Translations under genes and position numbers: made by a program
From: an uncultured Clostridia bacterium
GTDB taxonomy: Bacteria; Bacillota; Clostridia; Christensenellales; UBA1242
Direction of reading: 5' to 3'
Assembly: GCA_947168085.1 (NCBI GenBank)
Contig: CAMVKM010000002.1
Location: 1-52,502, forward strand
Length of the DNA: 52,502 nucleotides
The notes under the pieces: generated by a model
Seen by the model: the letters and a program-made list of their open reading frames with translations, nothing else
Database searches by the model: none
What the model was told of the DNA's origin: nothing
Shown here: in pieces, positions 3,173 through 31,300 of the stretch
Position numbering within the stretch: the first letter of the stretch is position 1
Layout: every line of letters begins with the position of its first letter

Positions 3173-3199
3173 GAGTTTTCCCCTTTGTTTTAAAATTTC

Positions 3200-4156: not shown

Positions 4157-4191
4157 CAATCTTACTCCTTTTTTATTCCTATTATGCAGAT

Positions 4192-4335: not shown

Positions 4336-6660
4336 ATGACAAAAACAGCTGAACTTTTGGCTCCTGTTGGAAATTGGGGCATGCTTAACACTGCCATAAA
4401 CAGTGGCGCTGATGCGGTTTATTTGGGCTTACAAAACTTTAATGCAAGGATGTCTGCAGACAATTTTAATGATGAAAACATCAAAGATTGTGTAAAACTT
4501 TGCCACAGCCATGGCATTAGAGTTTTTGTGACACTTAACACACTTGCAAACAATGATGAAATGAAACAAGTTTTAGAAACAGTTAAAACGGCAGTGGAAG
4601 CAAAAGTTGATGCTTTTATCGTGCAAGATTTTGGAATTGTAAATGTTTTGAAAAATTGTTTTGAAGGGATTGAACTTCATGCCAGCACACAAATGGGCAT
4701 ACACAATCTTGAAGGAGCAAAAATTGCAGAAAGTTTGGGAATTAAACGAATTGTGCTTTCAAGAGAAACAAAACTTGAAGACATTAAACAAATTCACAAA
4801 AACACCAATTTGGAACTTGAATTTTTTGTTCAAGGAGCTCTTTGTGTTGCATTTAGTGGAAACTGTTATTTTAGCAGCTTTATGCAGGATGAAAGTGGAA
4901 ACCGTGGCAGATGCAAACAATTTTGTAGAATGAAATATGTTGCAAGCACTGACAAAAATTGCGAAGAACAATATTTGCTTTCGGCACGAGATTTGTGTTT
5001 GATTGAAAATTTAAAGGAATTAATTGATGCAGGAATTTGCAGTTTTAAGATTGAAGGACGGCTTAGGCGTGAAGGCTATGTTGCTCAAACAGTGCAAAGT
5101 TATCGCCTTGCCCTTGACTGCCTTAAAAACAATAAAATTTTTGACATCAACAAAGAAAAGTTTTTGCTTAAAAAAGTTTTCAGTCGTGGAGACTTTTTGG
5201 AAAGAGCGTATCTTGACACTGGCGTGCCAGATGATGTGATAAACCCAAAAACACAAAATCACTTGGGAATTTTTGTTGGAAAAGTTTTGGATGTAAAACC
5301 TTTTAAAGACCTTTTTAAAGTTACCATAAATTCAACTCACAAACTTTCTTTTGGTGATGGCCTAAAATTTTTGGACGGCGAAAAGCAAATGTTTAGCCTT
5401 GGAGTTGGAAATGTTGAAGAACTTGGAAACAACAATTACAACATTTTTACAAAACACAAAATTAAACCTGGATTTAATGTGAATTTGATTTTGGACAGCG
5501 TTTTTGAGGAAAATTTGCTCAAAAAAACAAAAAAAATTGATTTTTCGGCACAAATTTTTGCATTTGCCGGAAAACCAATCAGTTGCACACTTGAAAGTGA
5601 AAACGTTAAAACCACATTTGAAGGTTGTGTTTTGGAGCCCGCAAAAAACGCTCCCACAACAAAAGAAGAAATTGAAACACAATTTAAAAAACTTGGTACC
5701 ACCGATTTTAATTTGACAAAACTTGAAATTTCTTGTGACAATGTGTTTGTTCCAAAAAGTGTTTTAAATGGATTTAGGCGTAATGCTCTTGAAATGCTAA
5801 AAAACAAAATTATTGATAGTTTTGAGAAAAACATTAATGTTAAAACAAATGAAAAAGAAATTGACAATTACAAAAAATTTAAAGCAGCAAAAACTGATGC
5901 CCTGAACAAAAACGTTTTAATTTTTGATGAAGACAATTTTGAACAATTAAAACAAAACAAAGAATTTTTGAAAGACAGCATTTTGATTTTTTCACCACAA
6001 AATTTTGCAGCAGCAAATTTTGATGATTTTGAAAAGGAATTTGACGATTTTGAAATTGGATTAAATTTGCCAATTATCGCAAACTTTGAAGATACAAAAA
6101 TAATAAAAAATATTTTAGAAAAACACAAAAACTTTTGGGTTGTTGCAAATAACCTATGGGGATTTTGTTTTGCAAAAATTCACAAATTAATAGCGGGAAC
6201 TAACATGAACGTTTTTAGTGATTTTTCAAAACAAACATTACAAAACTTGGGCGCAAAAATTTGCACACTTTCAATTGAACAAGAATTAAAAAATGTTGAA
6301 AGTGAATTTCTTCTGTATGGCTTTGGTTTTGCCACTCTTATGACATTTGCACACTGCCCTTTTAAAACTTTAAACAAAAACTCTTGCCAAAATTGCACCT
6401 TTGACAAAAGTTTGTTTTACAGCGACATAAACCAAAATAAATTTAAAATTAGAAGAATTAAATTAAGCCAATGTTATTTTGAGCTTTTGAATTCAAATGC
6501 TATAAACAACATTGGTTTGTTCAAAGAAAAAATGATGCTAGATTTAAGAAATATTGATGATGAAAAACTTAAACAAATCGCAAAAAATTTAAGCTTGAAC
6601 AATAAACTAAAATTATTTAAAAACGAAATTAATGGAAAAATCTTTAAGCAAGTTTTGTGA
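4336..6660 (+). CDS. Peptidase U32 family protein (long form, collagenase/PrtC-like)
   Basis: The U32 signature E-x-F-x2-G-[SA]-[LIVM]-C-x4-G-x-C-x-[LIVM]-S is matched by EFFVQGALCVAFSGNCYFSS. The N-terminus ELLAPVGNWGMLNTAINSGADAVYLG is typical of the family. The preferred start is ATG 4336 (MTKTAELL), preceded by a GGGGGGAA RBS. The track's TTG at 4321 lies inside that RBS. Confidence 0.85.
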   Translation: MTKTAELLAPVGNWGMLNTAINSGADAVYLGLQNFNARMSADNFNDENIKDCVKLCHSHGIRVFVTLNTLANNDEMKQVLETVKTAVEAKVDAFIVQDFGIVNVLKNCFEGIELHASTQMGIHNLEGAKIAESLGIKRIVLSRETKLEDIKQIHKNTNLELEFFVQGALCVAFSGNCYFSSFMQDESGNRGRCKQFCRMKYVASTDKNCEEQYLLSARDLCLIENLKELIDAGICSFKIEGRLRREGYVAQTVQSYRLALDCLKNNKIFDINKEKFLLKKVFSRGDFLERAYLDTGVPDDVINPKTQNHLGIFVGKVLDVKPFKDLFKVTINSTHKLSFGDGLKFLDGEKQMFSLGVGNVEELGNNNYNIFTKHKIKPGFNVNLILDSVFEENLLKKTKKIDFSAQIFAFAGKPISCTLESENVKTTFEGCVLEPAKNAPTTKEEIETQFKKLGTTDFNLTKLEISCDNVFVPKSVLNGFRRNALEMLKNKIIDSFEKNINVKTNEKEIDNYKKFKAAKTDALNKNVLIFDEDNFEQLKQNKEFLKDSILIFSPQNFAAANFDDFEKEFDDFEIGLNLPIIANFEDTKIIKNILEKHKNFWVVANNLWGFCFAKIHKLIAGTNMNVFSDFSKQTLQNLGAKICTLSIEQELKNVESEFLLYGFGFATLMTFAHCPFKTLNKNSCQNCTFDKSLFYSDINQNKFKIRRIKLSQCYFELLNSNAINNIGLFKEKMMLDLRNIDDEKLKQIAKNLSLNNKLKLFKNEINGKIFKQVL

Positions 6661-9487: not shown

Positions 9488-10930
9488 TTATTTTTTAATA
9501 ACAGTTGTTGTTCCATCTTTGTTATCAACAAGATCATAACCTAAATTTAAAATTTGTTTTTTTATTTCATCAGCACTTGCAAAATCTTTTGCTTTCCTAA
9601 ATTCATTTCGTTTGTCTACAAGTTCTTGAACCTTTTTATCAACAACATTGTCATCTTTTTTTTCTTCTTTTTGGTGCAAAAAATCAAAAACTTTAAAAAT
9701 ACTGTCAATTTTTACAAAAAATTCAGTAATTTCTGTAACATTTTTTGCATCAAAAGAATTTTGTGAAATTAACTCATTTGCTTTTTTAACAAATCCAAAA
9801 ATTTCAGAAAGCGCATTTGGTGTGTTAAAATCATCATCCATTTGCTCTTCAAATTTTGTTTTAAATGTTTCTAGTTCTTCTTGAAGCTTTGCGTTAAAAT
9901 CATTTCCAACTTGAGCATTTAATTTTGTGAAAAAGTTTTCAATCTTTTTGTATTCAGCACCAATCGAATCAAGCAGTGCAGAAGAAAAAGCAAGTGGGCT
10001 GCGATAGTGAGAAAAAGCACACATCCACCTAAGTTTTAATGCTCCATATTTTTGTATAGCATCTTCAACTGTCACATAATTGCCTTTTGACTTACTCATT
10101 TTTGTTCCATCTTCTGCGTTAAGCATGCCTGTGTGAACCCAATATTTTGCTGGCATTCCACAGCCAAGAGCTGCGCTTTGTGCAATTTCATTTTCATGAT
10201 GTGGAAATTGAAGTTCTCTGCCACCACCATGTATATCAAAATTTGCCCCTAAATACTTTTGACTCATAACAGAACATTCTATGTGCCAACCAGGATAGCC
10301 AACACCCCATGGGCTGTTCCATTTTAAAACACTGTTTGATTGTGCTTTTTTCCAAACCGCAAAATCATAAGGTGTGTGTTTTCTTTTATCACAGTCAATT
10401 CTTGCGCCCGCACTCAATTTTTCAACTGTGTTTCCACTTAAAATTCCATAGTTTTTAATTTTTGAAACATCAAGATAAACATTTCCGTCAAGCTCATAAG
10501 CAAAGCCATTTTCAATCATTTTTTTAACTGCTTCAATAATTTCAACAACATGGCCAGTTGCCCTTGGTGAAATGTTTGGACGGCGGCATCTTACAGCATC
10601 AAGACCTTCCCACATTCCTTTTATGTTCATGTCAACAAGTTCAAGTGGATGAACATTTTCATCTTTGGCTTTTAGCTCTATTTTGTCTTCACCTTCATCA
10701 GCATCACCAACAACAGAACCCACATCTGTGATGTTTCTAACATACATAACTTTGTAATTTTTAAAATACTTAAAATATTCTGCCATAACATCATAAGCCA
10801 CATAAGACCTGATATGACCTAAATGAATTGGAGCATAAACAGTTACTCCACAAACATACATACGAACTTCGCCTTCATGAATAGGCACAAAATCTTCTTT
10901 TGTTTTTGTTAATGTGTTATATATTTTCAT
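9488..10930 (-). CDS. cysS: Cysteine--tRNA ligase
   Basis: Class I HIGH motif (PIHLGHIRSY), KMSKS motif present verbatim (TKMSKSKGN), the conserved WHIECS zinc-site region, and a typical length of 480 aa. Confidence 0.93.
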   Translation of the reverse strand: MKIYNTLTKTKEDFVPIHEGEVRMYVCGVTVYAPIHLGHIRSYVAYDVMAEYFKYFKNYKVMYVRNITDVGSVVGDADEGEDKIELKAKDENVHPLELVDMNIKGMWEGLDAVRCRRPNISPRATGHVVEIIEAVKKMIENGFAYELDGNVYLDVSKIKNYGILSGNTVEKLSAGARIDCDKRKHTPYDFAVWKKAQSNSVLKWNSPWGVGYPGWHIECSVMSQKYLGANFDIHGGGRELQFPHHENEIAQSAALGCGMPAKYWVHTGMLNAEDGTKMSKSKGNYVTVEDAIQKYGALKLRWMCAFSHYRSPLAFSSALLDSIGAEYKKIENFFTKLNAQVGNDFNAKLQEELETFKTKFEEQMDDDFNTPNALSEIFGFVKKANELISQNSFDAKNVTEITEFFVKIDSIFKVFDFLHQKEEKKDDNVVDKKVQELVDKRNEFRKAKDFASADEIKKQILNLGYDLVDNKDGTTTVIKK

Positions 10931-12584: not shown

Positions 12585-14333
12585 TTAATCTTCTTTAATA
12601 TCAACTTTTATGTGTGCTTCAGAAAGTTGTTTGTCAGTAACTGTGCTTGGTGCGTTTGTAAGTGGATCATATGCTGACTTGTTTAATGGAAATGGAATAA
12701 CTTCTTTGATGCTAACTTCATCAAGAAGAAGCATAAGTGTTCTGTCAATTCCAGGAGCCATTCCTGCGTGTGGTGGAGCACCATATTTAAACGCATCATA
12801 AAGTGCGCCAAATTTTGCTCTAACAACATCTGCGCCATAACCAACAACTTCAAACATTTTTTCCATAACTTCGCAGTTGTGATTTCTAACTGCTCCACTT
12901 GCAAGTTCATAGCCATTACAAACCAAATCCCATTGATCTGCTTGCATTTCCAAAACTGGCTTTTCAAATGCTTTCATTCCACCTTTTGGTTGAGAGAATG
13001 GGTTGTGAGCAAAATCAAGTTCACCATCATCATTGAGTTCATAAAGTGGAAAATCTGTAATCCAACAAAATGCATAAGTGTTTGGATCACAAAGGTTTAA
13101 ACGCTCGCCAAGTTCTTTTCTTAAAATTCCAGCAAGTTTTGTTGTCATTGCTTTTTTACCTGCAAGCATAAAAATTGAACTTCCAACATGTGCGTCTAAA
13201 ATTTTAACAAGTGCCTGTTTTTCTTCATCTGTCAAAAATTTAGCAATTGGGCTGTTAAATTCAAGGCCATCTTCAACTTTTATCCAAGCAAGTCCTTTGC
13301 TTTGATTGTTAATCATAAATGTTGTAAGGTTGTCATAAAAAGATCTTGGTTGTCCTGCAAGATTAGGAACACAAATTGCTTTTACTGTGCTGTTTTTAAA
13401 GGCATTAAAACCAGTGTTTTCAAAAACTTTAGAAACATCTTTAATTTCAAGTGGGTTTCTAAGATCTGGTTTATCTGTTCCAAAACGCTCCAAACTTTCA
13501 AAGTAAGGAATGCGTGGAAAAGGTGCTTTTGTCATTGTTTTTTTGCTAAAATGACCAAACAAGTCTGTGTAAAGTTTTTCACCAATTTCAAACCAATCTT
13601 CTTGAGTTGAAAAAGCCATTTCCATGTCAAGTTGATAAAATTCTCCAGCAGCGCGATCTGCTCTGGCGTCTTCATCTCTAAAACATGGGGCAATTTGGAA
13701 ATATTTGTCAAAACCACTAACCATTAAAAGTTGTTTGAAAACTTGTGGTGATTGTGGAAGTGCATAAAACTTTCCTGGGTGTTGACGTGCTGGAATAATA
13801 AAATCACGAGCACCCTCTGGACTGCTTGCGGTGATGATTGGTGTAGAAATTTCCAAAAAACCCATTGATTTCATTTCTTGACGCATGAAATCAATAACTT
13901 GGCTTCTAAAAATAATGTTTTTGAAAAGTTCTGGATTTCTTAAATCCAAAAAGCGATACTTAAGTCTAACATCTTCTCTAACATTTTTGCTGTCTTCAAT
14001 TTCAAAAGGAAGAGGGGCATAAACAGCTCCAAGAACTTCAATGTCATCAGCAAAAACTTCAATTTCTCCAGTTGAAAGCTTTGGGTTAATGTTGTCTTCT
14101 CCACGAAGTCTAACCACCCCTTTTGCGCTAATAACAGCCTCACGGCTAACGCCCGAAAGTTTTTGGCTGTCACCAACAACAATTTGCACAATTCCACTTT
14201 GGTCTCTTAAGTCAACAAAAGTAATTCCACCGTGATCTCTAATTGTGCTTACCCAACCAGCAAGTTTGACAACTTGTCCAACTTGAGTTTTTGAAACTTC
14301 TCCACATTTTTGTGTTCGATATGTGTTTGTCAT
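12585..14333 (-). CDS. aspS: Aspartate--tRNA ligase (bacterial type with insertion domain)
   Basis: N-terminal OB-fold region (VKLAGWVSTIRDHGGITFVDLRD), class II motifs (FRDEDARADR, GAPPHAGMAPGIDR), length 582 aa. The preferred start is ATG 14333 (MTNTYRTQKCGE) with AGGAG upstream. The track's 14429 start adds 32 implausible residues and overlaps the promoter. Confidence 0.93.
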   Translation of the reverse strand: MTNTYRTQKCGEVSKTQVGQVVKLAGWVSTIRDHGGITFVDLRDQSGIVQIVVGDSQKLSGVSREAVISAKGVVRLRGEDNINPKLSTGEIEVFADDIEVLGAVYAPLPFEIEDSKNVREDVRLKYRFLDLRNPELFKNIIFRSQVIDFMRQEMKSMGFLEISTPIITASSPEGARDFIIPARQHPGKFYALPQSPQVFKQLLMVSGFDKYFQIAPCFRDEDARADRAAGEFYQLDMEMAFSTQEDWFEIGEKLYTDLFGHFSKKTMTKAPFPRIPYFESLERFGTDKPDLRNPLEIKDVSKVFENTGFNAFKNSTVKAICVPNLAGQPRSFYDNLTTFMINNQSKGLAWIKVEDGLEFNSPIAKFLTDEEKQALVKILDAHVGSSIFMLAGKKAMTTKLAGILRKELGERLNLCDPNTYAFCWITDFPLYELNDDGELDFAHNPFSQPKGGMKAFEKPVLEMQADQWDLVCNGYELASGAVRNHNCEVMEKMFEVVGYGADVVRAKFGALYDAFKYGAPPHAGMAPGIDRTLMLLLDEVSIKEVIPFPLNKSAYDPLTNAPSTVTDKQLSEAHIKVDIKED

Positions 14334-14370
14334 GTTTGTTTTTCTCCTAAAAATTTGATTTATAACTAAT

Positions 14371-14399
14371 ATTATACTCCAAAACAAAAAATATTTCAA
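14371..14399 (-). promoter_or_regulatory. Near-consensus sigma-70/SigA promoter for the aspS operon
   Basis: Minus strand reads TTGAAA (14399..14394), exactly 17 nt spacer, TATAAT (14376..14371). The leader to the ATG at 14333 is only about 30 nt. Confidence 0.65.
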
Positions 14400-14568
14400 G
14401 TAATTTAGGTGATATTCTTGTAAAAACAAGCAAATTCATGTTTGATGATTTTGGGTCAAATCCACAAATTGCTTTTTGCTTTGCGATTTTAACTCAAAAA
14501 TTTTAAAACAAAAAACGATTAAAACTGTTTTTTGAAAACTTCAAAAAAATGCCGATTAAATCTGAATT

Positions 14569-14703: not shown

Positions 14704-16245
14704 TTACATTGAAAGTGTGTCGTCCAAAACTTGAGACACAGCATCAACTGCATCATCTGCAACTGAATCAAGAACTTCTGAAACTTTTGGTTTTGATGCT
14801 TTTGTTTCTTGAATGTGATTTAAAATGTCTTCAAAAGTGCTGTCTGCGTCCATGTCTTGTGCCTTGTCATCAACAAGCATGTTTGTAACAAGCAAATCCA
14901 TGTCAAAGTCGTCAGCTGACAAACTTTCAAAGTACTCTTGTTGCAAAGCTTTAATTGCTTGGTTGTAATCATCAACTGTTGCAAAATACTCTCTAAAATT
15001 TGAGTCTGATTCATTATAAAGTTTTTCAAATTCGCTCAACTGCTCATCGGTTGCCAAAGATTTAAATTTGTCAATAAAAACATTAACTTGTTCCTGAGCA
15101 GTAAATGAATTTGCTAAAACATCATATTTGTGATCAAGAAGAAACTCATCTATTGAATATTTATGACCATTAAACACGAAATCTTCATAGGCAATGTCCC
15201 TATACTCTCTTCCAACAAACCCGCTATCACTAGGAACATAAAAAATGTTTTGCACATTAATCTCAATACCACGATCATGATAAGCTTTTGTTAAATTTGG
15301 AAAATTTTCAGTAAATTCATCAATAAATCTTGGTCCATCAGTCTCTTGAATACACTCACATTCTTGAAGTGTTTTCACACAAAAAGAAACAAGATTGTCA
15401 TCCAAATCTCGAACAAAGCCATTCACTCCACCACAAGTGCCTTTTTTGCCAGTAATATCGAATTCTGTGATGTTTGCACAATCTGTTGTAAGAAAATCTT
15501 CCAAATTTTGGTAAGATTCATCAATTTTTTCAATCAATGGTGCAAGTTTTTGGTTTGTTTTTGCCGCAAGTTCCTCAACTTGTTGTTGATAGGTTTTTGA
15601 AGAAAGCATTTCCACAACTTTTTCTTCAATTTCTGGCTTTCCTACATATTGTCCTGAAAGATTTGTTTCAATGATGTTTTCAATTTCATTTTCAGACATT
15701 TGTGGCTCATAAGGGTTGGTTACTGGAATCTCAAGTTTTTCGGGCAGAACAATTTCTGGAGCATCAGGAAGAGTCACATCTTTTTGCATTTGATTAAGTG
15801 CCACATAGGCACCAACTCCTGCAGCTGCAGCAACGCCAACACCCACAGCAGCCACTTTTGCTTTTGATTTGCCTTTTTTTAGGCTAGCTGGAGACACTGC
15901 TTCAAGTTTTTTGGATTCGTCCAAAAGTGTTTTTTCAAAATCAGCATAGGCGCTTGCTGGATTTGCCATTGAAGCAAACTCGGCTTCAACAGAATCTTTT
16001 CCAAATTTTTCTTCAATTTGTTTTGCATTTTTTTCACTTTCTTTTAGTTTTTGTGCTTTTGCATAAACTTTTGCACGGCTTTTGTCTCGTTGGTCCAAAA
16101 ACGCTTTGTAGGAAGCTTTGTCTTCAAAACCTTTTGATTCAAAATCTTCTAGTTTAGCTTCTCGTTCCTTTTCTACTTCTTTTAATGTTTTTTTAAATTT
16201 TCGTTGTTTTAACAATGGTTTTACAACCGGAATTGGATTTGGCAT
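14704..16245 (-). CDS. Bitopic membrane protein of unknown function: basic coiled N-terminal region, Gly/Ala-zipper TM helix, acidic ectodomain
   Basis: The track ORF starts at GTG 16251. ATG 16245 has AAGGAG 9 nt upstream. Residues 1-130 are K/E-rich. The TM helix is KVAAVGVGVAAAAGVGAYVAL (about 15796..15858). The roughly 360-aa C-terminal domain is strongly acidic with a 6-Cys cluster (TDCANI..GTCGG..SFCVKTLQECECIQ). I recognise no family. Confidence 0.7.
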   Translation of the reverse strand: MPNPIPVVKPLLKQRKFKKTLKEVEKEREAKLEDFESKGFEDKASYKAFLDQRDKSRAKVYAKAQKLKESEKNAKQIEEKFGKDSVEAEFASMANPASAYADFEKTLLDESKKLEAVSPASLKKGKSKAKVAAVGVGVAAAAGVGAYVALNQMQKDVTLPDAPEIVLPEKLEIPVTNPYEPQMSENEIENIIETNLSGQYVGKPEIEEKVVEMLSSKTYQQQVEELAAKTNQKLAPLIEKIDESYQNLEDFLTTDCANITEFDITGKKGTCGGVNGFVRDLDDNLVSFCVKTLQECECIQETDGPRFIDEFTENFPNLTKAYHDRGIEINVQNIFYVPSDSGFVGREYRDIAYEDFVFNGHKYSIDEFLLDHKYDVLANSFTAQEQVNVFIDKFKSLATDEQLSEFEKLYNESDSNFREYFATVDDYNQAIKALQQEYFESLSADDFDMDLLVTNMLVDDKAQDMDADSTFEDILNHIQETKASKPKVSEVLDSVADDAVDAVSQVLDDTLSM

Positions 16246-16309
16246 AAACACATTCTCCTTTTTTTATGTCTGGTAAATTGTATCACAAAACTTTAATTTT
16301 GTCAAGTTT

Positions 16310-19300
16310 TTAATTGTAATTAGAATATTTATAACCCAACAGTTTATATCGTTCAAAAAACTTGTGCCATTCTTCAATCAATTCATCTTTTTCTTCTTTA
16401 CTGATTTCTTGTTTTTGCGTTGTAGCGAAGTTTCCGTTTCTATCTTTCAAAAGTTTTCCAGAACCTTTACAAAGTGGGCAATCAATATGACCACTTCCAT
16501 CCACTTTGCCTTGCCACAAATCATCCCAAGCTCCGCCATGACCTCCACAACCAGAACAACCCACAGTGTCAATAACTGAGGATATTTTACCATTACCCCA
16601 ACATTCATCACAAACAACCTGGCCTTTTACAATAGCTGCCCCATTTTGACATATTTGCCCAATCCATTCACTGCACAGCATACAATCAATTTCCACATAA
16701 TCCTTAAGAATAGTTTTTGCCCAATTATTTTGAAGTATTTGAAAAACTGGACTAAAATTATGAGTATATAAAACACTTTTCATGGTTGGGTTTGCCGTTT
16801 TCATTGAACCATTACCCGTCTTGTCGTTTGTAACTAAACCTTTTGTTGCCAAATGTATTACTGAAGTGGATGCAGAACCATAATCTGTAATCGTTTCATA
16901 ATACCCTTGTTTTACTCCCTGATGTGAAGGGCCCGTTTCAACAAACACAGAATACTCATAATCGTAATCAACTGAAAGATTCCATGTTGATCGATATGGA
17001 TTACCATGCAAAATGTATTGTTGAGGAGTAACCGTCATGGACGCATCAAGTTCCATCCATCTTTGTGTTTTTGGACTGCTGCCTTGTTTTCCTGGAGTTA
17101 TTGAATATTTTTGAGTCAATGTACTGTTACATTCATAAGTTATGGTCCTAGATTCTTTCTCTTCACCATCTTCTCTTTTTAAATTATCAAAATCTATTTG
17201 CTCAGTTTGCTCTGGTTCTGTTGTTGAAATTGTTCCTGGATCTGGGCAAATTACCGTTCTTTGCAAACCATAAGTTTTAAAGAAAGCATTGTTGTTTTTG
17301 TCCCCAACTTCATCATCTGTCGCAAAAGGTGATGTTAAAGAAAATTTAAGCTTTTCAATTTTTGTTAACAAATTTTGTGTAACATCTACATTAGCTTTAA
17401 GATAAATGTAAGTTTTGCCAGTTTCCTTATCAAAAAACAAAAATCTTGTTACAACTGGATTGCTTGGATCATCTGAACTTATCTCTGTTGACGGACGAAT
17501 AGCCTGTCCAGAAACATCCTGGGCTTCAGCCCAATAAGTTGTGTTAGAATCGAGCACAATTTGTTGTTCACTGTCTGCATAGTTGTATGGATTTGTTATT
17601 GGAATTTTTACTCCTGCTATGTACTCATAATCAAAAGCATACAAATAAGGTGTTATGGTGTAAGTTTTTGTTAGTCCACCTTCTGAAACTCCTTTAATCT
17701 CCAATCCATTATCCTCAGGCTTTACTTCTACAGCCTCACTCCCATACACAAAGTAAGTGTCATCTTCATCATTTTCTGCATCAACACTATAATTGTCATC
17801 ACCTTGATTGTCTGGATTGTAAGCGTACACAACACTAGTGATTGGCTCTTCCTTATCATCTAAGAAGAACGCAATAACTCCACCAGCACCCAATGATTTT
17901 GGTTCATAATCGATGAAATCTTTTGGAACGATGTAATTTATCTTTTCACCTTCACCTTCGGTTTGAAGATCTGTTGTGTCTAGCGAAGGAAGAAACTCGT
18001 CAACACAATTAACATCAAATTGAGTTTCATAGAAATAACCAATTTCATAATCAGAATTTTTTGGAATTACACTTATCACAACAACATTACGACCAATTTG
18101 GAACTTTCCGTAGTTTACTCTTAGACCTTGTTCTGTGTTTGCCTCAGAAATAAGTGTGTAGTCAAACAAACCACCTGCCAATGCTTTGTAGGTGTTTGTT
18201 GTGGCTGTGTCTTTTTCACCCAAAGCCAAAAAGTTTGAAAGTCCAGTTATGGTGTCGTATTTTGATTTTGAATCTGAAATAACTCTAAGAATATCATCTT
18301 TTGACACATTGAGTGCATCAAGAGATGATGGATTGATTGTGTAGATTGCGCTTTGAGCCCTTTGAAGATTGATTGTGCTTTCACCAGAAATGATTTCTGA
18401 ATCTTGATAAGCAAAACCTTCAACTGGGTTGTCTTTGTAGGCAGTGTCATTAATTGTTTGTTGCCTTAGCGCAACTTTTACGCCCAAGTTGTTGTTGTAG
18501 GCAACTTTTGTTTCAACATTTGTGATTGCTTTTGTTACTGTGTTTCCAAAAGCGTTGTAGCGATAGTTTGTGTTTCCAACATCTGTTTTCGTTGCTGAAA
18601 TGCCTTCGTTGTTAAGACCTTGAATTATGATTTTGTCGTTTTCTTGAACAAGAGAAATGTCACCCTGTCCTGTTTCTCCCACTTTTGGATTGATGTAAAT
18701 TTTTCGGTATTCAACTGTTGCTGCAACACTCCAATCGCTGTCAAAAGCCCTTGGTTTGTTGTTTGAAGCGGTTTTTCCTGTAAGTTTGTAGAAAGCTGTG
18801 TAGACCCCACCTGGAGAATTTTGCAAAATGGCGTTGTAAAGATTTACAACATCATTACCGCTGAAAGAACCAGTTACTGTTGCATACCCAACTCTTGAAT
18901 TTGTGCTTTCTGGATATTCCGTTAAACTTCCTGAATAGATTTCAATTAAGGTTTGAGCCAAATTGTTGTCACCCAAACTATCAAATGTTTTTCCTGTGGT
19001 TGAATCAATGCTGAAACCTGCCAATTTTCTGTTGCCTGCCAAATCTGTTATGGTAATTGCATTTGCACTGTTTTCATAAACAGCAGCAAGTTTTGAAACA
19101 TCGATGTCCCTGTCTGCATTTAGCAATTTTTTGTTTTGATCAAAGCCATATGACAGCAAAACATTTTGATTGAAATTGTATTTTGCCGAAATGTCACGAA
19201 GGTGTGAAAGCTTTAACACAAAATCAAATTCGCTTGAAAGATCTTTGTGCCCAAACACCTTTTGGTCTTTGTTGTTTATTGTTATGGTGTAGTAAGGTTG

Positions 19301-22300
19301 AATTGCAAACTGCCATGTTGTGCATGTTGCCCAATCAAGATTGTTTTCAACATCTTTAAAGAGGAATTTTTTGCCTGAATGATCATTTGAACGCTCGATA
19401 ATATCAATGATGTTGTAGGTTTTTGTGTTTGATGAAACTGAACTATCATTCAACATGTAGATATGTGGATTTTCTTGTGTTTGATTTTTGTAATCAAAAA
19501 TTGTGAATTGATAATTTACATCATCAATGTTGCAATTTGCCAATTTGTCATATTTAAAACTCATGTTTATGCGGGCAGGTTTTAAAAGACCAGATGCTTT
19601 TCCTCCAACAATGGTTTCCTCTTCTGTCCACATGCCATCTTTTTCTGCTTCCATTTTTTCAACTGTGAATTCTTCGGTTGAAATGCGGTGATAGAATTTG
19701 AAGTTGCGCAACATTGATTGACTTGTTGTCCACAAACTTGATGCCTCTGCTGTTGGTTTTACTGTGATTTGAAAACTTATGTTAACACCATTTTTGTCAA
19801 TTAATCCTTTTTCCTTTAATGCGTTGTCGATTTGATTGTAGAAATTGTGGTTTGTTTCTTGATTTTGCGTGTTTTCTGAAATTGACGCATCTATACGATT
19901 TGTGTTTCCATAATTTTTTAATGCAATAGTTTCACCAAGTTGACCTGAACTTTGAATGGTGTTTTCAAGGAAAACTTTTACTTCAAAATCTAAGTGCAAA
20001 CCAAAACCATTTATGTTGGTGTAGCAAACACCATTGTTAGTATGAAATTCATCTCCTGCAGATTCAGCAGTGTAAAGATATAAATATGGGTCCATAACCA
20101 AAATTTGTTCCCTATATTCTCTAGACAATGTGTCATTTTTATAAGTTGTTAGGTTTGTAACATGATTGTCAACTCTCATCAAATCTTCAGTTGTTAAATA
20201 TGTGAACTTACCATTAATTTCTTTCTTTAATTCACCTGTGGTGTCTTCAATAGCCCCAGCAAAATCTAATTCAATTTTTCGAACATAGTTGTATTGTTCA
20301 CCATTTGAACCTTCTCTATCAATGTTAACACTTCTTGTTTCAACAAAAGACAATTGTTTTTTGATTAGAATTGTTTTAAATTTGTTTTGTTCTGGATTTG
20401 TTTGACTGCTGTGAGATTTTTTTGCTCCTGCAACATAACTTGCAACATAACCTTGATTTCCGTTTGAAACAAATGGCACATTATTTGTTGTAGTTACATT
20501 AAACAACATAACTCCATTGCCTTCTTGGTCGGTTGACACAAAAATGTCTTGAGCAATTGGTGTTTGATAGAATCCCCAAATATTGCGAATTACATTAAAC
20601 TTGTTACCGTTTCGATCAGAATAAAGTGCATTTAGTGTTGTACTTACTTCTCCACTTTGTTGTTGCTCGAGAACTATGTCTTGAACATAATCGGTTGTTG
20701 CCGGATTTCTTCCAACAACATCAACACAAAAAGCATCTCCCATTGTGCCCGTTTTGTGCCTGATGTACTGTGATGCTTCGTTTGTGCTGTAAACACCAAC
20801 AGTAAACGTGAAGTAGCCCGGAATAAATTTGTCGACAATCGCGTTGTAAATTGCGCTTTCTTGTTTTTGAGTGCTTAGATTTTCTGCTTTTGTTTCATAA
20901 TTAAGGAAATAAGTTTTATCTAAAACAATTGATGCTCGTTTCATAAAGTTGTGAATGTCCACTTGACAATCACTTAATGGAATGTCAAGACAAATGATTG
21001 AAGGTTCTGCCTCATCATCAAAGTAAAGTGAACTATTATTAAAATCTGCGCTATTAAGCAAGTTTAGACTAGTGTTTGTTGTGTCTCGAACAATGTAAAC
21101 CTTTAACATATCAGCAATGTCTGTTGCGCCATTAACAGGAGAGCTGATGTTTTCAACAGTTAGAGTGATTTTTATGTCTTTTACAATTTCACTTGATTGA
21201 TTTGGGTTTTCCTCAACATAATTAAACACATAAAAACCACTATTTGAATCGTCGATTGTGCCTTTGTCGCTTTCAACAACAACTTCGGAAATTTTTGGTG
21301 TTGCCATACGCACTCTATGAACAAAACTTGCTTCACCTTTTCCGTTTGATGACATTAAGTCTTGTCCGCCTTCAACAGGAATCAAAACCACTGTTCCAAC
21401 CACTTGGCCAACCACCATGCAAGTTCTGCTTACGTTGTAGGTTACTTCATTTAAGCCAGCGTTTGAACTAAACATCCAATTTAATGGAATTGCAACATTT
21501 GTAATTTCAACAGACCAAACTTGTGAGTCATTAGATGCTCCTGAAATGTAAGTGTTTGAAGTTACTCTTTTTAATATTTGTGGTTTTGTGTTAGAACCAT
21601 GTCCACGCAACAAAAGATTTTCGATTAACTCTGCACTGGAATCAGCGCTTGGATCTTTGTTGAAAACTTTTACTGCAACAACTTTGTATGGTGTTTGTTC
21701 TTCTGGTGTTTGCTCTATAACAATGCGGAAGAAAATGTCTTTGCTTACTGAATTTTGATTTGCAAGCATGGTTGAAACTTTTACAACAGCATAATATCTG
21801 TTTGTGCCAGCCGCATAATCAACATCTGTTGCATCTGTCAATTTTTGGAATGCTTCGGTTTTTAACGACAAGTAAAGGTTGTAGTAGTAATTATCCTTAA
21901 TTGTATCAAAATTGTCATCTTCAGAAACAAACATAAAGTGCTCTTCGTCACCAAAAGTATTTGCTTCTTTGCTTTTTGATGTGTAGGTTGAAATTCCAAC
22001 TATTGGTGCATCAAGACCATCAGGAATTAATGGCAAATCTTCTACATTTGTGTCACTGTCCAAAATGTAACCATCACCAAAATTGTTTGCAAAAACTTTA
22101 AAGCTTAATGTGTTGTAAATGAGTTCAAGCACACTTGGTGTGATGTGAAGTTTTCCGTTCCATGTTTCTGGGTCAAGGTTTTTAAGGTTAATTGTCATGC
22201 TGTAGGTGTTATTATTACGAACAACTGATGCCTCTGTTCCAACAACAGAAACCATTGCCGGTCCATGATTTTCCCCACTTTCTTCAGGCGAATACTTTGT

Positions 22301-25300
22301 TGTGTTCACAATTGAAAAATATGGTTCTTTTTCGCCTGGAATGTAAGTTTCTTCAATGTTTTTAAAGAAGGAACAATACCAATCAAATTTTAACTTGCTG
22401 TTTTTCAAATCTTTGAAGTCAAAACTGATATTTGTAACATTTTCAAATTTTAAGTAATGAAGCATTGCATTGGTTGTTGTTTTTGCTGTGCGCTCTGATG
22501 ACATATCAGCAACAGCATCACTTTTTGCACCATAAACACGGAAATAATGTTTGCCATAGTAATCTTTAAATTTTCCTGCAAGAATAGCTTTGTCTTCGTC
22601 CAAATCATCTGGAATTGGTCTAAACATAATTGAAACATCAATGTAAATGTAGCCATCAATTGGTTGAACACTTATTGGGTAAAAACTTTGATTTTCACCA
22701 TATTTTGAATTTGCTGTGGCAAATTCTTGTGAATGCCCTAAAATATAACTTGTTGGATACTGTCCATTAACATCTTCAACCTTAAATTTAATAAACACAT
22801 TGCGTTCATTTTCATTTTCTGCCCAAGCCTCTTTTAATGCATCTTTTGTTTCTTGAGAATCAGATTCATAAATCATTTTTGTGTTTTCAGATGTTGGGAA
22901 CAAACTGCTGTAATAGCCACTGCTGTCTGCGATGCTGTCCACAAGCATAATTTCAGTGATTTTCCATGGAGCCAAAATCAATTTTTTAGCGCTGTAAACA
23001 ATAGAATCCTCATACAAAACTGGATTTATTTGAGTGACTAATGAAATGGCAATGTAATACCAACCTGTTTTAAGTTCTTCACTGTCAAACCACTTGTCTT
23101 TTTCGACATTATCCCTGCTTTCAAGAAATTCTCGCATGTTAAATGAATATAAAAGTTTTTGTGTGTCTTGGTCAAGGTAAGACATGTTAAATGTCATATT
23201 GTAACCACCACTACTTTGATTACACCATGCAACTAACTCAGTTTGCCCAAAAACGCCGTAATTGCTTGGGTCAATATCTAGTTCTTTAAGTTGTTCAAAA
23301 GTTTTGTTTTCATCATAATCAGCAACATCAACACGAATAAGTTCAAATTTAAAAGTAACTTTTGAAGTACTGTTAATGCCATTGTTCCAAAGTCTTGTGT
23401 CTTGAGCATAATACTTATTAAATTTGTAGTTAAAGTCAACCTTGCCAGATGTGGTGTCCCAATTCATTCCTGGGTGATCATCCTCTGAAACAACACAATC
23501 AAGTTCTGTTTCCCAAACAAATTCATTGCTTGCAACATTAATTCCGCTTGTTGTTTGAATGTCTGTAATCAAAGGTGTGTCAATCCAGCCACTTTTGTTA
23601 ACAAAACGAGCGTCAGAAACTCTTAAAAACATTTCTATTGTGTTTGCATTGCTTGATGTGCTGTTGTCAGCCAAAAGAATGCTTCTTAAACTTATGCTTA
23701 AATTGTGTGTTGTTGCTGATTCCACATCCACAACTGAGATTGAACGTTCAATTCTTTGTTTGTTTACATAAATAATGAAATAATAACTGTCTGATTTGTT
23801 GCCTTTCATTCTTGTGTTGTCTGTGAATGACCAAGAAAGTTCTCCATAACTTGGACTTTGTCTGTTAGTGTTTAAAACAACTGAATTTATGTAAAGATTT
23901 CCAACCATGTCAAGAATGTCCCAGTATTCAAAATTACTTTCGTCCACATCAACAAGGTCTAATTGTGTTGCATAAACATCAAAGTAAACATAAGAATTGC
24001 CTAAACTTGATTCAGCAAACTCATCAAAAAATGGTTTTTCTTCAAAGTTTTCATTTGCTTGCATTACTATTGATTCAGGTTCTTCACCCCTTAACACATC
24101 AACAAAAGTTGTGTTAAAGTTGTAGGTGTCAACAATTTCATCTGTTGTGTAGATGTAATTAAGAGCATTGAACTCTAACACCATGTAACTAATGTTTGTT
24201 TTTGGATCAACTTTTGGCATAATGCTAAACAGTGAGTGAATGTGACCGGAAACATCAATTTTTGAAGTTTTTCTTGCAGCATCAACATCAACAAGTTCAT
24301 ACAAAATTTCAAAAATGTCATCATTGTCTGGATCAACATAACTAACTTTTACATAAGCATCAAATGTGTTTGTGCTGTCCTTTAATGCATCTACACTTTT
24401 AAATGAAATTTGATAGTGCAACATTGTGTCTAAAATTGGGTCTAGCAAAATTGTGTAGAGTTTTGTTCCTGTTACATAACCAGAAATGTCATCATCAACA
24501 CCATTTCCATCATAGTCAAACCATGTGTAACCCAACTTGTCGCGAGTTTCATAAATGTAACCATCATTTATGTCATCAGTTTTTTGCAAAACTGTTGAGT
24601 GAATTGTTTTGATGTAGTGTTTGTAAGTGATTGCATGAGTTTCGTTAAGGTCACTGTTTAAAACAAACTCACTTAAATCAGCAAGTGTCGAAAGCCATTT
24701 TGTTTTAAATGTGTAATTTCCATAATTCATGTCTGCAATGTGTTTTAACATCATTTGATAAACAGAAACATTTGCAACAACATTTCCATTGCCATCGTCT
24801 TGAGTTTCTGCTCTTTCTTTCCAAACAACATCACCATTTTCATCAATGCAGTAAATTTCATAAATTACGCCAATTTCACTAATGCCATGTTCAATCAAAA
24901 GATCAGTTAATGTGTCAAAACCATCAGTTGTTCTAATTTCCGTTGCAGGTCTATCTTCATCAATTGTTGTCATGTGACGATTGTAAATTGTTATGGTGCT
25001 TTGTGCTCCACCAAAATCATAATCAAACAAATCACTGTTTGCATAGTAAACTCCATCACCTTTTGCAACAATTTTTAAGGTGTAAACACCTGGAGTGAGT
25101 TCATTTGTTGTGTTTGATTTGTTTCCTGTTAAGGTAAGTTTTTTAACTAAAGAGCCTTGTTTGTAGAAGTATACTTCATATCCCATAATTTCATCAGGTT
25201 CTTCAGCTTCCGAAAGTCCTCTTGTTACTGCTTTTGCGTTAAAATATCCACTTAACAAATGTTCGTTTAAAATTGCAATATAGCTTTGGTCATAAATTGG

Positions 25301-28300
25301 TTCACCAAAAGATTCACTTGTTTCGTCAGAATTTACTGCAAGAATATAGCTGTCCACAACAACATCAATGTATCTTAAAGCATTACTAAGTTCAATTTTT
25401 CTGTTGTTAACAAACTCTGTTCCAACAGAGTCTCCAGTTCTCATAAATTCATTTGCAATAGCTGGAAGAACTGTTACATAAACTTTGAAATCACCTGAAT
25501 CAACATTTTCAAAATAATCAAACACATTAAGTTGAACATGCGCAACAGAACTATCTTGTTCATCAATCACATAAAAACTTGTTGTTCCATCAAAGTAAAT
25601 AATACTGTAACGAGCATCGCTAATTACGCTACTGTAAGCAAAGTAAGCAGCATAAACTGGTCTTTCATCACCGCCAACCGTTTCTGTTGCCAAAACTTGA
25701 GCTTCTTCTCTAATCAAAACATTGTTTTCAACAATATCTTTTTTAACTTCAACTTTTAATATTGATCTTGTTAAATCATCATCTGCCATATCAAAAGTCA
25801 AGGTTTTTGTTCTTGAACCATCATTTGAGTTGTAAGTGTAGTTGTAATTAAGATTAGAAACATGACCCGCTTTATCAAAAATTCTAAGTTCAGCCCTCGT
25901 TTCATTGTCCGCCATAGAACCAGTCATTGTGTAAGAAGAATTTAAGTTTTCTTGCTTGTCTGTAGCAACACTTGCCCAAAGATAATACAAGCCTTTTGAT
26001 GGAGGATTTGCACTGTTTTGAAGAGATTCAATCCAGCTTGAAATGTCACAAACATAATAAATTTGCTCATTTTCAATCAAAATGTCAACAAGCAAAGGAT
26101 CAACAAATTCATTTAATTTGTCGCTTCTTAAAACACTTGTTTGATTTGCATCTAAAAGTGTTGGAACTCTAACTTCAATTTTATCTTCTGCGTTACTTGC
26201 TTCTCCTGTTGCTCTGTTTACATCAAGATTTGTTACACTTGATTGCGCAAGATAGAAATTGTAAAGCGTTGCATAGTAGTTTTCACTTGAATCTTGAGTT
26301 GCTTTCCATTTAAGTATGTAGGTTACTTCATCTGGGCAATCAATTTCAAGCCAAACATTAGAATTTATGACAATAGGAAGAAAAACTTCTGCTTGCAAAG
26401 TTTTATCGTTGTAAATTTGGTGAGTTGTTCCCAATTCATCAACAACAGCAAAGTTTGAAACAGACATTGTTGCCATTCCATTTCTGTATCTTCTGTCTAT
26501 TTCACTTAAGAACAAACTTGTTTTTCCATCAGTTGTTGCAAAAACGCTGTTATTTGCTGTTGAATATGGAGTTGATTCAATTCCTTCCTGAATCACTGAC
26601 ACAACATAATGTTCGTGTTTTTTGTAGTTGTTTGGCAAAAGTTGTGTTGAAATTTTAGAGAATGGATCATCCCATGAAAGATAGTAACCATCACTAACAT
26701 CATCAAAACTAATGTCTAAATCAAAGTTTTGAAAGTCTTGTGAACCAACATGGAAAATTTGATAAACAATTGTTGAGTAACCTATTGTTGCCACATTTGA
26801 TTTTGAAAAAACAATAACGCCATAAATTTTTGTGCTGTCATTAACATCAAAATCGTCAATCACAAAATAATTGTTCTCTGTTAAAATCCAAAAATCTGAA
26901 AGACCAAGATAGTCGTCATAACTTTCATTTGCAAAAAGTAGATTTGTGTCAATATAAAGTTTGTCAGACACATTTGTTAATGTTTCACGACCAGTGTTGT
27001 CTTGGCAACGAAGTTCATAAGTGTTTGTTGTTAAATCCCAAACATAGTAAGCATAACCATAAGTTGCATTTGACACTTCACCCCAACTTACATTTGCCCC
27101 ATGCCCCAAAAGTGGAGTGATTTGTAAACCTGCTGGAGATGGTGTGCGTGTTGATGTTACTATTGTTTTGTAATCAAACCATGAGTGTGTTAAGAAAACA
27201 AACTCTTCTGGCATGTCATTACAATCAAGCAAATCTTCATAATCTGCTTTTTGTTTGGCTTCAAAATCCATTACCCTTACGCCAAACTCAAAGTTGTAGT
27301 CAAATGTTGTCCAGTAAGCAAAAGCCTTTCCTTCAAGTTTGAAGCCTGCAATGTGCTCTATTGGAATTTCATAAGTGAAGAGCGTTGCAAATTCGCCTTG
27401 TTGTTTTTGAGCAAGATAGGTGCTTCCGTCTGCAACAAAAAGGCTTTTGTTTGTTGTTTGTTGTTCATGATTTCCAACAATGTCAACTGTTTTAATTTCT
27501 AAATCAAAACCTTTAAAATCATCTGTTAAAAATTCATTTAGCACAGAAATTTTAACCGAAACAGGATCTGTTGAATTAATTTGAGCACTTTCAACAGAAA
27601 AACCATAAACTGAATCTAAAGTTTTTGAGTAAAAGATGTAAATTGGATTAGAAAAACTGCTTTCATTAGCATATTGGTTTCCACCAAATTTAATAATCAG
27701 TTTGTAAATTCCTTCTTTGTTTAAGAACAAAGACACTGGATCAATAAGATACTTGTAATATGTTTTGCCCTCATAAGAAAAGTCGGTCAGCAAAACAGTT
27801 TGTGGCTCTTGTGATTCTACACTCATAAAGCCTGAGCCATAAACTTGTGTTATTTCAAAGTTTATCCATGCAGCTGATCTTCCGCTGTCATAATAACTGT
27901 TTGGAGTTCTTTGAATGTAAACAGCAAGTGGTCTTGTTGATTGGTCATTTGATGTTGCATAATCTTTTAAAACACTAGAGCCATCATAAAAACCAATTTC
28001 TGGTGCAGTAATTACTGCTGATTTGGTTCTAAATGTAACTCTGTATGGGTTTGATTCGTTGAAGTGTTTTTCAACTTTTCCTTTTGCAATAACAACAAGT
28101 TGATATTGTGTGTTTGCCAAGAACCCTGTTGCACCATAAAACTTTAAGCCAATTCTCTTGTCTCCAACAACCAAAGTTGCCAAAACATTGTCTCCATTCA
28201 TAGCTGTTAGTGTTCCATTAATGTCAGCAAAATCAAACTCTGCATTGTTGTAGTTTAAACTATATGAGTAGTAAGCATCTTCGCCTTCAGGTTCAACCAA

Positions 28301-31300
28301 ACTAATTTGTAGTCCAAGAGTTAAAACATCACTTTGGGCAACACCACTGGTTTGAATTTTAATGCTGTAGCCACCAGGAAGAATTTCTTGTTCTTCACCA
28401 AAACTTGTGCCTTTTATGTTTTTAAAACTTGTTTCAAAAGTTGGAATTAAAGTTGCAGATGTTTGCTCACCAGTAAATCCTTCTGCAACATAAATTTCTG
28501 GGGTGTCAAATTTTTTGCTTACTTCAACAGCAACAGACAAACTTGGTTCACTTTTTATAACACTACCATCAATGTTTTTCCAATTTTCGTTTGTTGCAAC
28601 AACAAAAATTTTGTATAAACCATTTGCAACAAGATTGTTGTTTAAGTAGTCTGCAAGTTTTGCATTAAGCAAATACTCTGTGTGTTCAAAACCAATCAAA
28701 GATTCCTCTGTTGCGCCACTACTCATGCTAAATTCACCCAAAATTTGAGCATCATCTTGTGTTTGTGTGTCATCATTGTAGTAGTAAACACTGTAAAGTG
28801 TCACAAAAGATTCTGGCTGAATTTTTTTAATTTGAAGTTGTGTTCCATTTAGTGTTACAACAGGTGCATCTAAAATTGGAAGATATTCAAAAAGTTCACT
28901 TGTTGTGGTTTCACTTTGAAGATATGCTCCACCGTCAACATTGTAGCCACACGCAAAAACTTTTGCTCTAATTTTAAATCTTTCAGAAAAAATGTTTTCA
29001 TAAATGTCTTTTGCATTAACAGTAATTCTTGCGCTTGCTTGTCCAACTGTTAGTTCACCAAGAAAAACTCCCGTTTCATCATTTTCGTCCTCATACTTAA
29101 ACAATTGAACGCAGTAAGCATCTCCTGTTCTGTTTTGCTTTCTAACAATATCCCAAGAAACGAAAATTTGTTGTGTTTCTAAATTTTGAGTTATTTTTAG
29201 ATTTTGTGGTGCTTCAAGTTTTACATTAACATTAATTTCTTGTGTAAGTTTGTTGCTTGTTCTGTTTTGAACTGAATCAAAAGATGAATATGGCCACATT
29301 GAAAATTCAATTGTTCCGGCTTTTTCAAAGAACACTTGTTCAGAGTAAAGCATGTAGTCGCCATCTTCGGTTTCATTGGATTTTGAAAGTGTCATTTCTT
29401 GAACATTTTCATAAACCCCATTTACAATATAGCGATAATTGCATTTAAAACTTGTTACATAAGCACTGGCTGTTTTTAAAAATCTCCAGTAAAATGTTGA
29501 AGTTGTTGAATCATAACTAAACCCATAAACTTGTGGCATTCTTGAATTGTCATAAAAATCTTTTGAAAATTCTTGTGAATGAATGTAGTTTTTGTCTACT
29601 GTTGTGTTTGGTAAAGCATTGTTTTCATCATAAACAGGATTGCATATGATTCTTGTTTTGGTGTATTCAGCAAGCCATGTTGGGTTTAGTTTTTGAACAT
29701 AAACCGCTGTTGTTTGTCCGTTTGCATAAAAATCATAACTTGCACTGTTTGAGTGAACTGTGCTTTCACTGTCGGTGTAAACAAATGTGTAGTTAAACTT
29801 GTTTGCATAGCGATCAGAGTAAAACATTAAATAGAAATTAAGTTCGTCATCAACATCTGTGTATTTTTTAATTGCTCTTGCTTCCACTAAAAATCTTGTT
29901 TCATCATAACCCGCACCAATGTAGTAGTGGTAAGCAACATTTGTAAGCTGAGGACTTGCTGATGTGGTAAAACCAGTGTAGCCAAGCGCTGTGATTTGAA
30001 CTGTGTTTGTTGCTTTTGGAATAACATAGTCAGAAATGTTTAATCTGTATTGTGTGTCATCACCCGTTCCACACGCTGCCAATTTAGATTGATTGTCAAT
30101 AGAAATAATGTAGCCGTTTACATTGATGTCAAAATGCTGATTGTATTCATCATAAATTGTTTCCATGTTGCTATCAAGACGATCCCAAACAACATACAAA
30201 TTGTTGCTGTTCTCTGCTTGAGATGCAATAAAAACATCAGGCACAGGAAGATAACGAACAAAGGAATAACTAACACTTTGTGAAAGTTCGCTGTCACCAA
30301 AGTTTGAATCATCTAAAGCAATTGCTTTAACAGCAAAGTTGTAACTTCCTTGTTCAAATTGCCCTTGCATTTCATTAAAGTAGTAGTCAAAACCAGATAA
30401 ACTAAGCACTCCATTTGTTATGGTTGCATTAAAGTTGGCGTTAACTTCCCACTCATTCAAATTGTTTTTAGTTTTAACAACACAATTTGTTTCATCTGTT
30501 GTGTCAACAAAAACATTGCCATCAACACCATCAACAAAAAGTTGATAACCTTTTGCATGACTAACAACACTAAACTCAAGTTTGTGCTGTGAAATGTCTT
30601 GATCTGTGTCTACAAACTGCAAATTTTGTGGTGTAGCAACAAGCACAGAGTAGTAAAATTCACATTTTTCTGATTCATCTGAATCTGTAAAGATTAAGTA
30701 ACCACCCAAAGTTTTTACGCTTGCAAAATATGTTCCTGGATTTTCACTGTTTTCTGCCAAAAATTCAGAAAGATTTAAGTTGTTGTTTGAAAAAACACTT
30801 TCGTTGTGGTTTCTTTGTTTCCTAAATGTTTTTACAACATTATTTTCGTTTTGATAGTAAATTGTTATCTCGTAACCGTCAATATCGGTTAATGCTGGAT
30901 ATCTTGTTGAACCCTCTAAAGTGTCTGTTGCGTAACTGTTTGCAAAAGGTGTCCAAGAAAGCACTTGTGTTGCAGAGTTGTAGGTTACTTCAATTGGTGC
31001 TTCGTGCTTTAGAGTTTCAAATTTAAAGAACTTTGAACTAATGTCACTTTCTGTGTAGTAGTCGCTTTGTTTTTTTGCAACAACAGACACAAGATAGTAA
31101 CCATCGGCACTTAAATCAACTGGGAATGAAACTGTTCCACCATCAATTTCAGCATACCACTGATTTGATGAGCCTGGAATTGTGAAATAGTTTCCAAGTT
31201 TGTCTTGGATAAAGACTTTGTAGCGGGTTTGTTCTTCAGCCCTCCAAGAAACATCAATTCTGTCTCCTTGTTCTCCACTTCTAAAAACTTTAAAGTCAAC

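Follow-up and report, generated by a model that had tools for sequence, protein, structure and literature searches.

Introduction

Tetra-cysteine zinc sites and DnaJ-type cysteine-rich (CR) modules are usually treated as intracellular, and Firmicutes are generally known to keep cysteine out of the proteins that they export. This work concerns a stretch of DNA of 52,502 nucleotides from an uncultured Clostridia bacterium (assembly GCA_947168085.1, contig CAMVKM010000002.1, positions 1 to 52,502; hereafter the window), in which two giant genes, A and B, code for proteins that end in a cysteine-rich tail. We propose, with moderate confidence, that these tails are metal-stabilised zinc-hairpin end domains which lie outside the cytoplasm on Sec-exported giants and most likely bind proteins.

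The closest known counterpart is BSD2 (PF25436; structures 6EKB and 6EKC), a chloroplast Rubisco assembly chaperone that forms a hairpin with two Zn atoms, each held by four cysteines, and binds folded RbcL (PMC5859369). With a size of about 8 kDa, it exists in the stroma as a protein in its own right, and it has been reported only in plants and algae (PMC5859369). The tails share with BSD2 the four CxxCxGxG-type knuckles and, as predicted, the hairpin of about 70 residues, and in both the first two motifs stand exactly three residues apart, as seen in A, in the related giants P0023 and L001 and in the lipoproteins described below. They differ in that motifs 3 and 4 of the giants are some 18 residues apart, and in that the module forms the C-terminal part of putatively exported bacterial proteins of about 5000 amino acids. 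In a profile alignment with BSD2, the same C..C.G.G-xxx-C..C.G.G register was obtained for the first motif pair only.

The CR domain of DnaJ (PF00684; 1EXK) likewise repeats CxxCxGxG four times, but the giants have no J-domain, G/F region or DnaJ C-terminal domains and their predicted location is extracytoplasmic. The motifs start 11, 21 and 26 residues apart in A, and 17, 22 and 14 residues apart in E. coli DnaJ. Anti-TRAP (PF15777; 3LCZ/2BX9) has DnaJ-CR-like CxxCxGxG knuckles and gives weak profile matches; it differs in having two motifs and one zinc, in being a cytoplasmic oligomer with a specific partner, TRAP, and in its poor structural match.

PSA2, LQY1 and CYO1, likened here by description rather than by sequence, are precedents for CR-type modules that work inside a compartment, or at one, which counts topologically as external to the cytoplasm or stroma. 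All three are small proteins of eukaryotes for which disulfide-isomerase roles in the assembly of photosystems have been proposed. PSA2, a plant DnaJ-like zinc-finger protein, was reported in the thylakoid lumen (PMC4806229, PMC7662858). As for the giants themselves, Apilactobacillus kunkeei encodes Giant1-5, surface proteins of 3000-8000 amino acids in consecutive genes. These start with a signal and finish in a small conserved domain for which a role in attachment has been proposed (PMC12863079). Those proteins are unrelated to A and B and repetitive, and their C-terminal domains are DUF5776/SH3b-like, with neither a zinc nor a cysteine motif.

Results and discussion

Cysteine-rich tails of giants A and B

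The two genes and the elements at their 3' ends are as follows.

16310 to 32413, minus strand: giant B, 5367 amino acids plus stop, with the module at its C-terminus (from the open reading frame (ORF) list and its translation; entry P0001 of the public protein library)
40351 to 52500, minus strand: giant A, at least 4049 amino acids, a paralogue of B whose N-terminus is cut by the contig end
16457 to 16684, minus strand: cysteine-rich module of B, C5244xxC5247, C5255, C5268xxCxGxG, C5286xxCxGxG and C5312xxCxGxG
16313 to 16456, minus strand: C-terminal extension of B, 48 residues, lysine/glutamate- (K/E-) and aromatic-rich
16685 to 16729, minus strand: pre-module segment of B, NNWAKTILKDYVEID, with the motif W-A-K/E-T/D-I/L-L..Y
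40375 to 40572, minus strand: cysteine-rich module of A, with CPDCGGTG, CPKCDGNG, CENCGGSG and CPKCKGTG, all canonical CxxCxGxG
40591 to 40620, minus strand: pre-module helix of A, RWAKDLAYKY, a DSSP helix at model residues 5-14 with a predicted local distance difference test score (pLDDT) of about 60

Translation of positions 16310-17509 of the minus strand gave the C-terminus of B as ...DYVEIDCMLCSEWIGQICQNGAAIVKGQVVCDECWGNGKISSVIDTVGCSGCGGHGGAWDDLWQGKVDGSGHIDCPLCKGSGKLLKDRNGNFATTQKQEISKEEKDELIEEWHKFFERYKLLGYKYSNYN, followed by the stop codon. An earlier note on this DNA, made without database searches, had read CMLCSEWIG, CDECWGNG, CSGCGGHG and CPLCKGSG in this tail; all four are present and its coordinates are exact, since the codon of Cys5244 opens at 16684 and that of Gly5319 closes at 16457. 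A has four canonical CxxCxGxG repeats and B three (at 5268, 5286 and 5312); the first motif of B, CMLCSEWIG, is only a CxxC, followed by a 13-residue insertion with a ninth cysteine, C5255. The K/E-rich helical tail of the same note was found in B only, as the 48-residue extension with 18 lysine and glutamate residues, which is absent from A, P0023 and L001; a helix (5339-5356) was predicted there at low confidence only. The paralogue A was confirmed to carry the same module, which ends seven residues before the stop.

The cysteines are strongly clustered, with nine of the 35 in B falling within the C-terminal 124 of its 5367 residues (P = 6e-8 by the hypergeometric distribution) and eight of the 24 in A within the last 73 of 4049 (P = 4e-9), and chance clustering was rejected on these values. 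From composition, about 7e-4 CxxCxGxG motifs would be expected per protein. An ORF antisense to the module of B (16364-16579, plus strand, 71 amino acids) was also rejected, as it lies inside a conserved coding region.

Family assignment and predicted fold

For both tails Pfam ranked DnaJ_CXXCXGXG first, followed by BSD2_CRD and Anti-TRAP, all of them below their gathering thresholds. Membership of PF00684 could not be upheld, since its gathering score is 32.7 bits and the tails of B and A scored 18.2 (E = 0.0031) and 24.1 bits (E = 4.4e-5), respectively. BSD2_CRD (PF25436) was not reached either (17.4 bits for B and 18.3 for A versus 27), nor was Anti-TRAP (PF15777; 15-16 bits versus 32), the tails having four motifs and not two. 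Because these scores lie under the gathering thresholds, the tails were filed neither in PF00684 nor in PF25436. NCBIfam returned faint DnaJ and RtpA matches only, the DnaJ models scoring 15-18 bits against cut-offs of 377-619, and no DnaJ or DnaJ_C domain, and hence no DnaJ (Hsp40) architecture, was found in the 5367 residues of B or the 4049 of A.

A family profile was then built from 15 modules (alignment A5) and compared with PDB sequences. It matched BSD2 with E = 1.1e-5 and 1.1e-4, the E. coli DnaJ CR domain 1EXK with E = 7e-4 and anti-TRAP with E = 9e-4. An AlphaFold2 model of the tail of A, calculated from the 15-sequence alignment, reached a pLDDT of 81.1, with all four CxxC knuckles in blocks of 89-95; the model of the tail of B, at a pLDDT of 47.9, was uninformative. 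When the A model was compared with the PDB using Foldseek, BSD2 6ekb came first (template modelling score 0.72 normalised to the target, probability 1.0), with 6ekb, 6ekc, 8ilm and 8ilb as the top structures and the DnaJ CR domain as the second family. These matches have weak E-values (0.02), in keeping with the small size of the domain, about 70 residues. Viral matches to the model were largely annotated as CR-type or DnaJ.

The module is therefore nearer to BSD2 than to DnaJ in form and is, at Pfam thresholds, a member of neither family. The DnaJ-type label of the earlier note can be kept at the level of the DnaJ-CR/BSD2 superfamily, to which profile and fold both point, but not as membership of PF00684, and the closest solved relative is BSD2. 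Taken together, the tails are very probably a CR-type zinc hairpin. By analogy with the matched fold they would hold two Cys4 sites, which are presumed to be occupied by zinc.

Conservation in other giants

When 1.84 billion representative proteins were searched exhaustively with a profile, only two giants were returned: B itself and P0023 (5248 amino acids), an orthologue of A with 53% identity over about 4100 residues. A scan of GTDB genomes found a single locus, L001 (1-17912), on a contig with 37% G+C from a human-gut metagenome-assembled genome (MAG) labelled [Ruminococcus] torques. Conserved pre-tail peptides found nothing in a scan of Joint Genome Institute (JGI) metagenomes, and word-indexed homology searches with the B tail (160 amino acids), the last 520 residues of A and the A tail (88 amino acids) gave no matches.

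In the window, A and B are separated by a third giant gene.

32442 to 39701, minus strand: giant lipoprotein M, 2419 amino acids, between A and B, with a signal ending ...FVAC

M has no cysteine-rich tail and is a possible partner. L001 contains, in order, an A-like giant (51% identity to A), an M-like lipoprotein (55%) and the start of a B-like giant, and the A-M-B order is thus conserved.

The tails of A, B, P0023 and L001 were aligned. All eight cysteines, most motif glycines and the pre-module segment W-A-K/E-T/D-I/L-L..Y are invariant among the four, at an overall tail identity of only 38-44%, and P0023 and L001 each have four canonical CxxCxGxG repeats. The earlier note had argued from the paralogue that the module is under selection and had named loss of the cysteines in orthologues as evidence against it; the eight cysteines are kept in these two giants from other assemblies, and the module, retained in the paralogue and in both of them, is therefore under selection.

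Outside the tail the giants offer little to recognise. A and B are 32-35% identical across most of their length. In none of A (4049 amino acids), M and B (5367) did a Pfam or NCBIfam model score above its threshold, the only matches of B being the weak CR ones; A, M and B have neither internal protein repeats nor tandem DNA repeats according to self-BLAST and TRF; and a phmmer search with a 1140-residue stretch of B found no sequence relative in the PDB.

Predicted export signal and topology of giant B

The N-terminus of B carries the following element.

32240 to 32413, minus strand: N-terminal export signal or anchor of B, residues 1-58, with a K/R-rich n-region, a 22-residue hydrophobic segment and PVVA↓SE (the arrow marks the putative cleavage point)

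The n-region contains the motif GSQVVYITNK and the stretch NKSKERRSR. A hydropathy scan of the 5367 residues of B found no other convincing transmembrane segment and none near the tail, the sole other segment above the threshold being weak and strand-like. B thus has what is expected of a Sec substrate, namely a positive n-region, one N-terminal hydrophobic segment and no further transmembrane segment, and these features are kept in P0023 and L001. The prediction in the earlier note that the protein is extracellular agrees with this charged N-terminus and single 22-residue hydrophobic segment. According to the positive-inside rule, everything behind the anchor, some 5300 residues with the tail among them, would lie outside the cell, and we consider this location of the tail likely.

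Residues 1-58 of B are nearly identical at the start of the B-like gene of L001 (~16550-16750) and similar in P0023. Indeed, the N-terminal ~65 residues of the giants are far more conserved than the rest, with an n-region motif GSQVVY.TNK and P-[AV]-V-A↓S-E, and this strong conservation points to a signal peptide or anchor that is long and specialised. The AxA-like sequence behind the hydrophobic segment reads PVVA↓SE in B, PAVA↓SQ in P0023 and PAVA↓SE in the B-like gene of L001 and, judged from sequence, is a possible signal-peptidase site.

Exported relatives of the module

The exhaustive search gave 37 matches, only one of which is a J-domain DnaJ. Two of them, P0005 and P0025, lack any CxxC and were discarded, since low complexity had made them match the profile falsely. 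At the N-terminus, a signal peptide, lipobox or anchor was found in about half of the cysteine-bearing matches and in eight of the ten best when B is excluded; each of the four proteins that pass the PF00684 cut-off (P0002, P0003, P0006 and P0018) has one, and in P0002, P0003 and P0018 the module stands directly behind the signal peptide or lipobox. Since so many relatives carry such signals, the combination of CR module and export signal is recurrent. The premise that the module is essentially cytoplasmic, and hence unexpected on an exported protein, is weakened accordingly, all the more so with PSA2 reported in the thylakoid lumen. This recurrence lowers the surprise of the tails yet exposes what appears, from these sequences, to be a branch of the superfamily that lies outside the cytoplasm. 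The literature that was searched contained no account of exported CR modules in bacteria.

The relatives include Bacteroidota BACON lipoproteins (P0010, P0014, P0015 and P0029; loci L005-L007) and a TonB_C lipoprotein from a Muribaculaceae MAG (P0009; L002-L004). Their modules read motif 1, three residues, motif 2, GC..CGG and then G.G.(I/V).C..C.G, and the motif spacing of the giants is common to the BACON and TonB_C lipoproteins and to P0004, P0013, P0020 and P0037. The module lies 0-3 residues from the stop in P0009, P0010, P0014, P0029, P0004, P0013, P0020 and P0037, and is internal in P0015 (residues 117-190 of 299). The small ORFs upstream of two of the four lipoprotein relatives whose gene neighbourhoods were compared (P0009, P0010, P0014 and P0029) are unrelated to each other.

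Proposed function of the tails

We propose that A and B each finish, over their final ~75-125 residues, in a small DnaJ-CR/BSD2 zinc hairpin, in which four CxxC knuckles would make up two tetra-cysteine Zn(II) sites. The N-terminal signal or anchor would direct the giants to Sec export; the module would cross last and unfolded, and would then fold around two zinc ions outside the cytoplasm, where the reducing milieu of the anaerobic gut could keep the thiols reduced and able to hold zinc. The folded module, presumably extracellular, would be a compact protein-binding end domain and, if the N-terminal anchor is kept, the tail would form the distal tip of a membrane-anchored fibre. The lipoproteins may share this geometry, with a lipid anchor, spacer domains and then the module, which would belong to an extracytoplasmic branch of the superfamily that also serves as the end domain of Bacteroidota lipoproteins and provides modules to further proteins with signal peptides. 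A protein-binding role is proposed because the characterised relatives (DnaJ CR, BSD2 and anti-TRAP) all bind proteins; that the module acts as a binding knob is nonetheless put forward tentatively.

Several results weigh against this proposal. The first motif of B is degenerate, both tails score below the gathering thresholds of PF00684 and PF25436, the model of the B tail is unreliable, and the Foldseek E-values for the A tail are weak. The gene neighbourhoods of P0009, P0010, P0014 and P0029 have no neighbouring gene in common. Moreover, cleavage of the signal at the conserved VxA↓S would mean that the tail does not form a distal tip.

Such cleavage is the starting point of an alternative in which the signal is cut at P-x-V-A↓S and the zinc hairpin docks the released giant to a partner in the membrane or wall. 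Candidate partners would be lipoprotein M and the product of the gene immediately downstream of B.

14704 to 16251, minus strand: single-pass membrane protein gene, ~513 amino acids, with the transmembrane segment VAAVGVGVAAAAGVGAYVAL

Conservation of the AxA-like site in B, P0023 and the L001 B-like gene speaks for this retention at the surface, as do the conserved A-M-B order and the lack at the C-terminus of an LPXTG motif or any other known anchor on inspection of the sequence and in Pfam and NCBIfam. There is also an analogy in the A. kunkeei giants with their SH3b-like C-terminal attachment domain (PMC12863079). However, the 22-residue hydrophobic segment is long enough for a stable anchor, the same module also ends lipoproteins that are already lipid-anchored N-terminally, and a strong promoter-like site (11/12 plus TG) at 16305-16277, between the stop of B and the ~513-residue gene, separates the two genes. 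We regard surface retention as unlikely, and prefer the protein-binding end domain.

The CxxC pairs could alternatively act outside the cell as a thiol-disulfide oxidoreductase, or the module as a client-binding holdase, on the giant itself or on neighbouring surface proteins, as proposed for PSA2 and CYO1. The superfamily indeed comprises chaperone client-binding modules, those of DnaJ CR and BSD2 (PMC5859369), and a disulfide-isomerase role has been discussed for the lumenal PSA2 (PMC4806229). Disulfide substrates would be few, however, as the rest of B has only 26 cysteines in 5243 residues with no obvious pairing, and a module that emerges last could not act while the chain is translocated; for these two reasons a redox or holdase role is the less likely. 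Neither a J-domain nor an Hsp70 partner is available outside the cell, and knuckles with the conserved xGxG pattern typically make structural Zn sites. We consider this role distinctly improbable beside the structural zinc hairpin with a protein-binding surface.

The suggestion of the earlier note that the module is a cytoplasmic stopper, folding before translocation ends and keeping the C-terminus inside, draws on the fast and tight folding of zinc-stabilised domains, but it is very improbable, because the module has to cross the membrane in many exported relatives (it directly follows the signal peptide or lipobox in P0002, P0003 and P0018, and ends short lipoproteins that need full translocation and sorting) and because a plugged SecYEG channel is harmful to the cell, while no transmembrane segment near the tail would stabilise such a topology.

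Other features of the window

The window is one complete contig with 34% G+C from the cellular genome of a low-GC gut bacterium. It carries genes for AspRS, an ABC-F protein, CysRS, a SLOG protein, an MGDG-synthase-like glycosyltransferase and a U32 peptidase; a megablast of this housekeeping block against plasmids gave no match. A, M and B are consecutive on the minus strand upstream of these housekeeping genes, and fill about 36 kb (16310-52500). The 650-bp A-M intergenic region (39702-40350) contains a terminator-like hairpin of 14 pairs (40213-40182, minus strand) and a short T-rich tandem array of 11-bp units (39946-39995). The ~513-residue membrane protein downstream of B is acidic and has no family match in Pfam or NCBIfam; its true start is likely to be an ATG two codons inside the listed GTG ORF, 9 nt after AGGAG.

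At the left end, a stop-free frame of at least 1066 amino acids (2-3199, minus strand) that starts with MKTNKSFKGFALKNWKTILICVILALTLAGGG... runs off the contig. With its N-terminal hydrophobic anchor it appears to be another large surface protein, left out of the ORF list because it is truncated. Between this frame and the U32 peptidase gene lies the gene of a 333-residue protein (3200-4201, minus strand) that has a hydrophobic segment at either end and matches no family. Over the whole contig there was no Rfam match at the gathering score, and a tRNA scan came back empty. Neither aspS (12585-14429) nor cysS (9488-10930) is preceded by a T-box leader, an absence that would be unusual in a typical genome of Bacillota.

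Conclusions

The tails of A and B show a known domain in a genuine role that has probably not been described before, and they are no isolated curiosity. A bolder proposal, which we consider rather doubtful, is that the giant tails and the Bacteroidota lipoprotein modules together form an undescribed extracytoplasmic branch of the DnaJ-CR/BSD2 superfamily, that is, an extracellular Zn(Cys)4 domain of anaerobes in at least two phyla that would serve as an ATP-independent client- or ligand-binding end domain (a holdase or adhesin tip). In this family of giant 'dark' proteins, for which neither another domain nor a repeat nor a solved relative could be detected, the module is the one feature that offers a way in, and the tail is small enough to be expressed, tested for zinc and used as bait for partners. 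A two-zinc hairpin conserved at the end of exported giants of about 5000 amino acids, and also borne by many lipoproteins of gut Bacteroidota, would suggest a widespread and largely unnoticed metal-dependent surface module in anaerobic gut bacteria.

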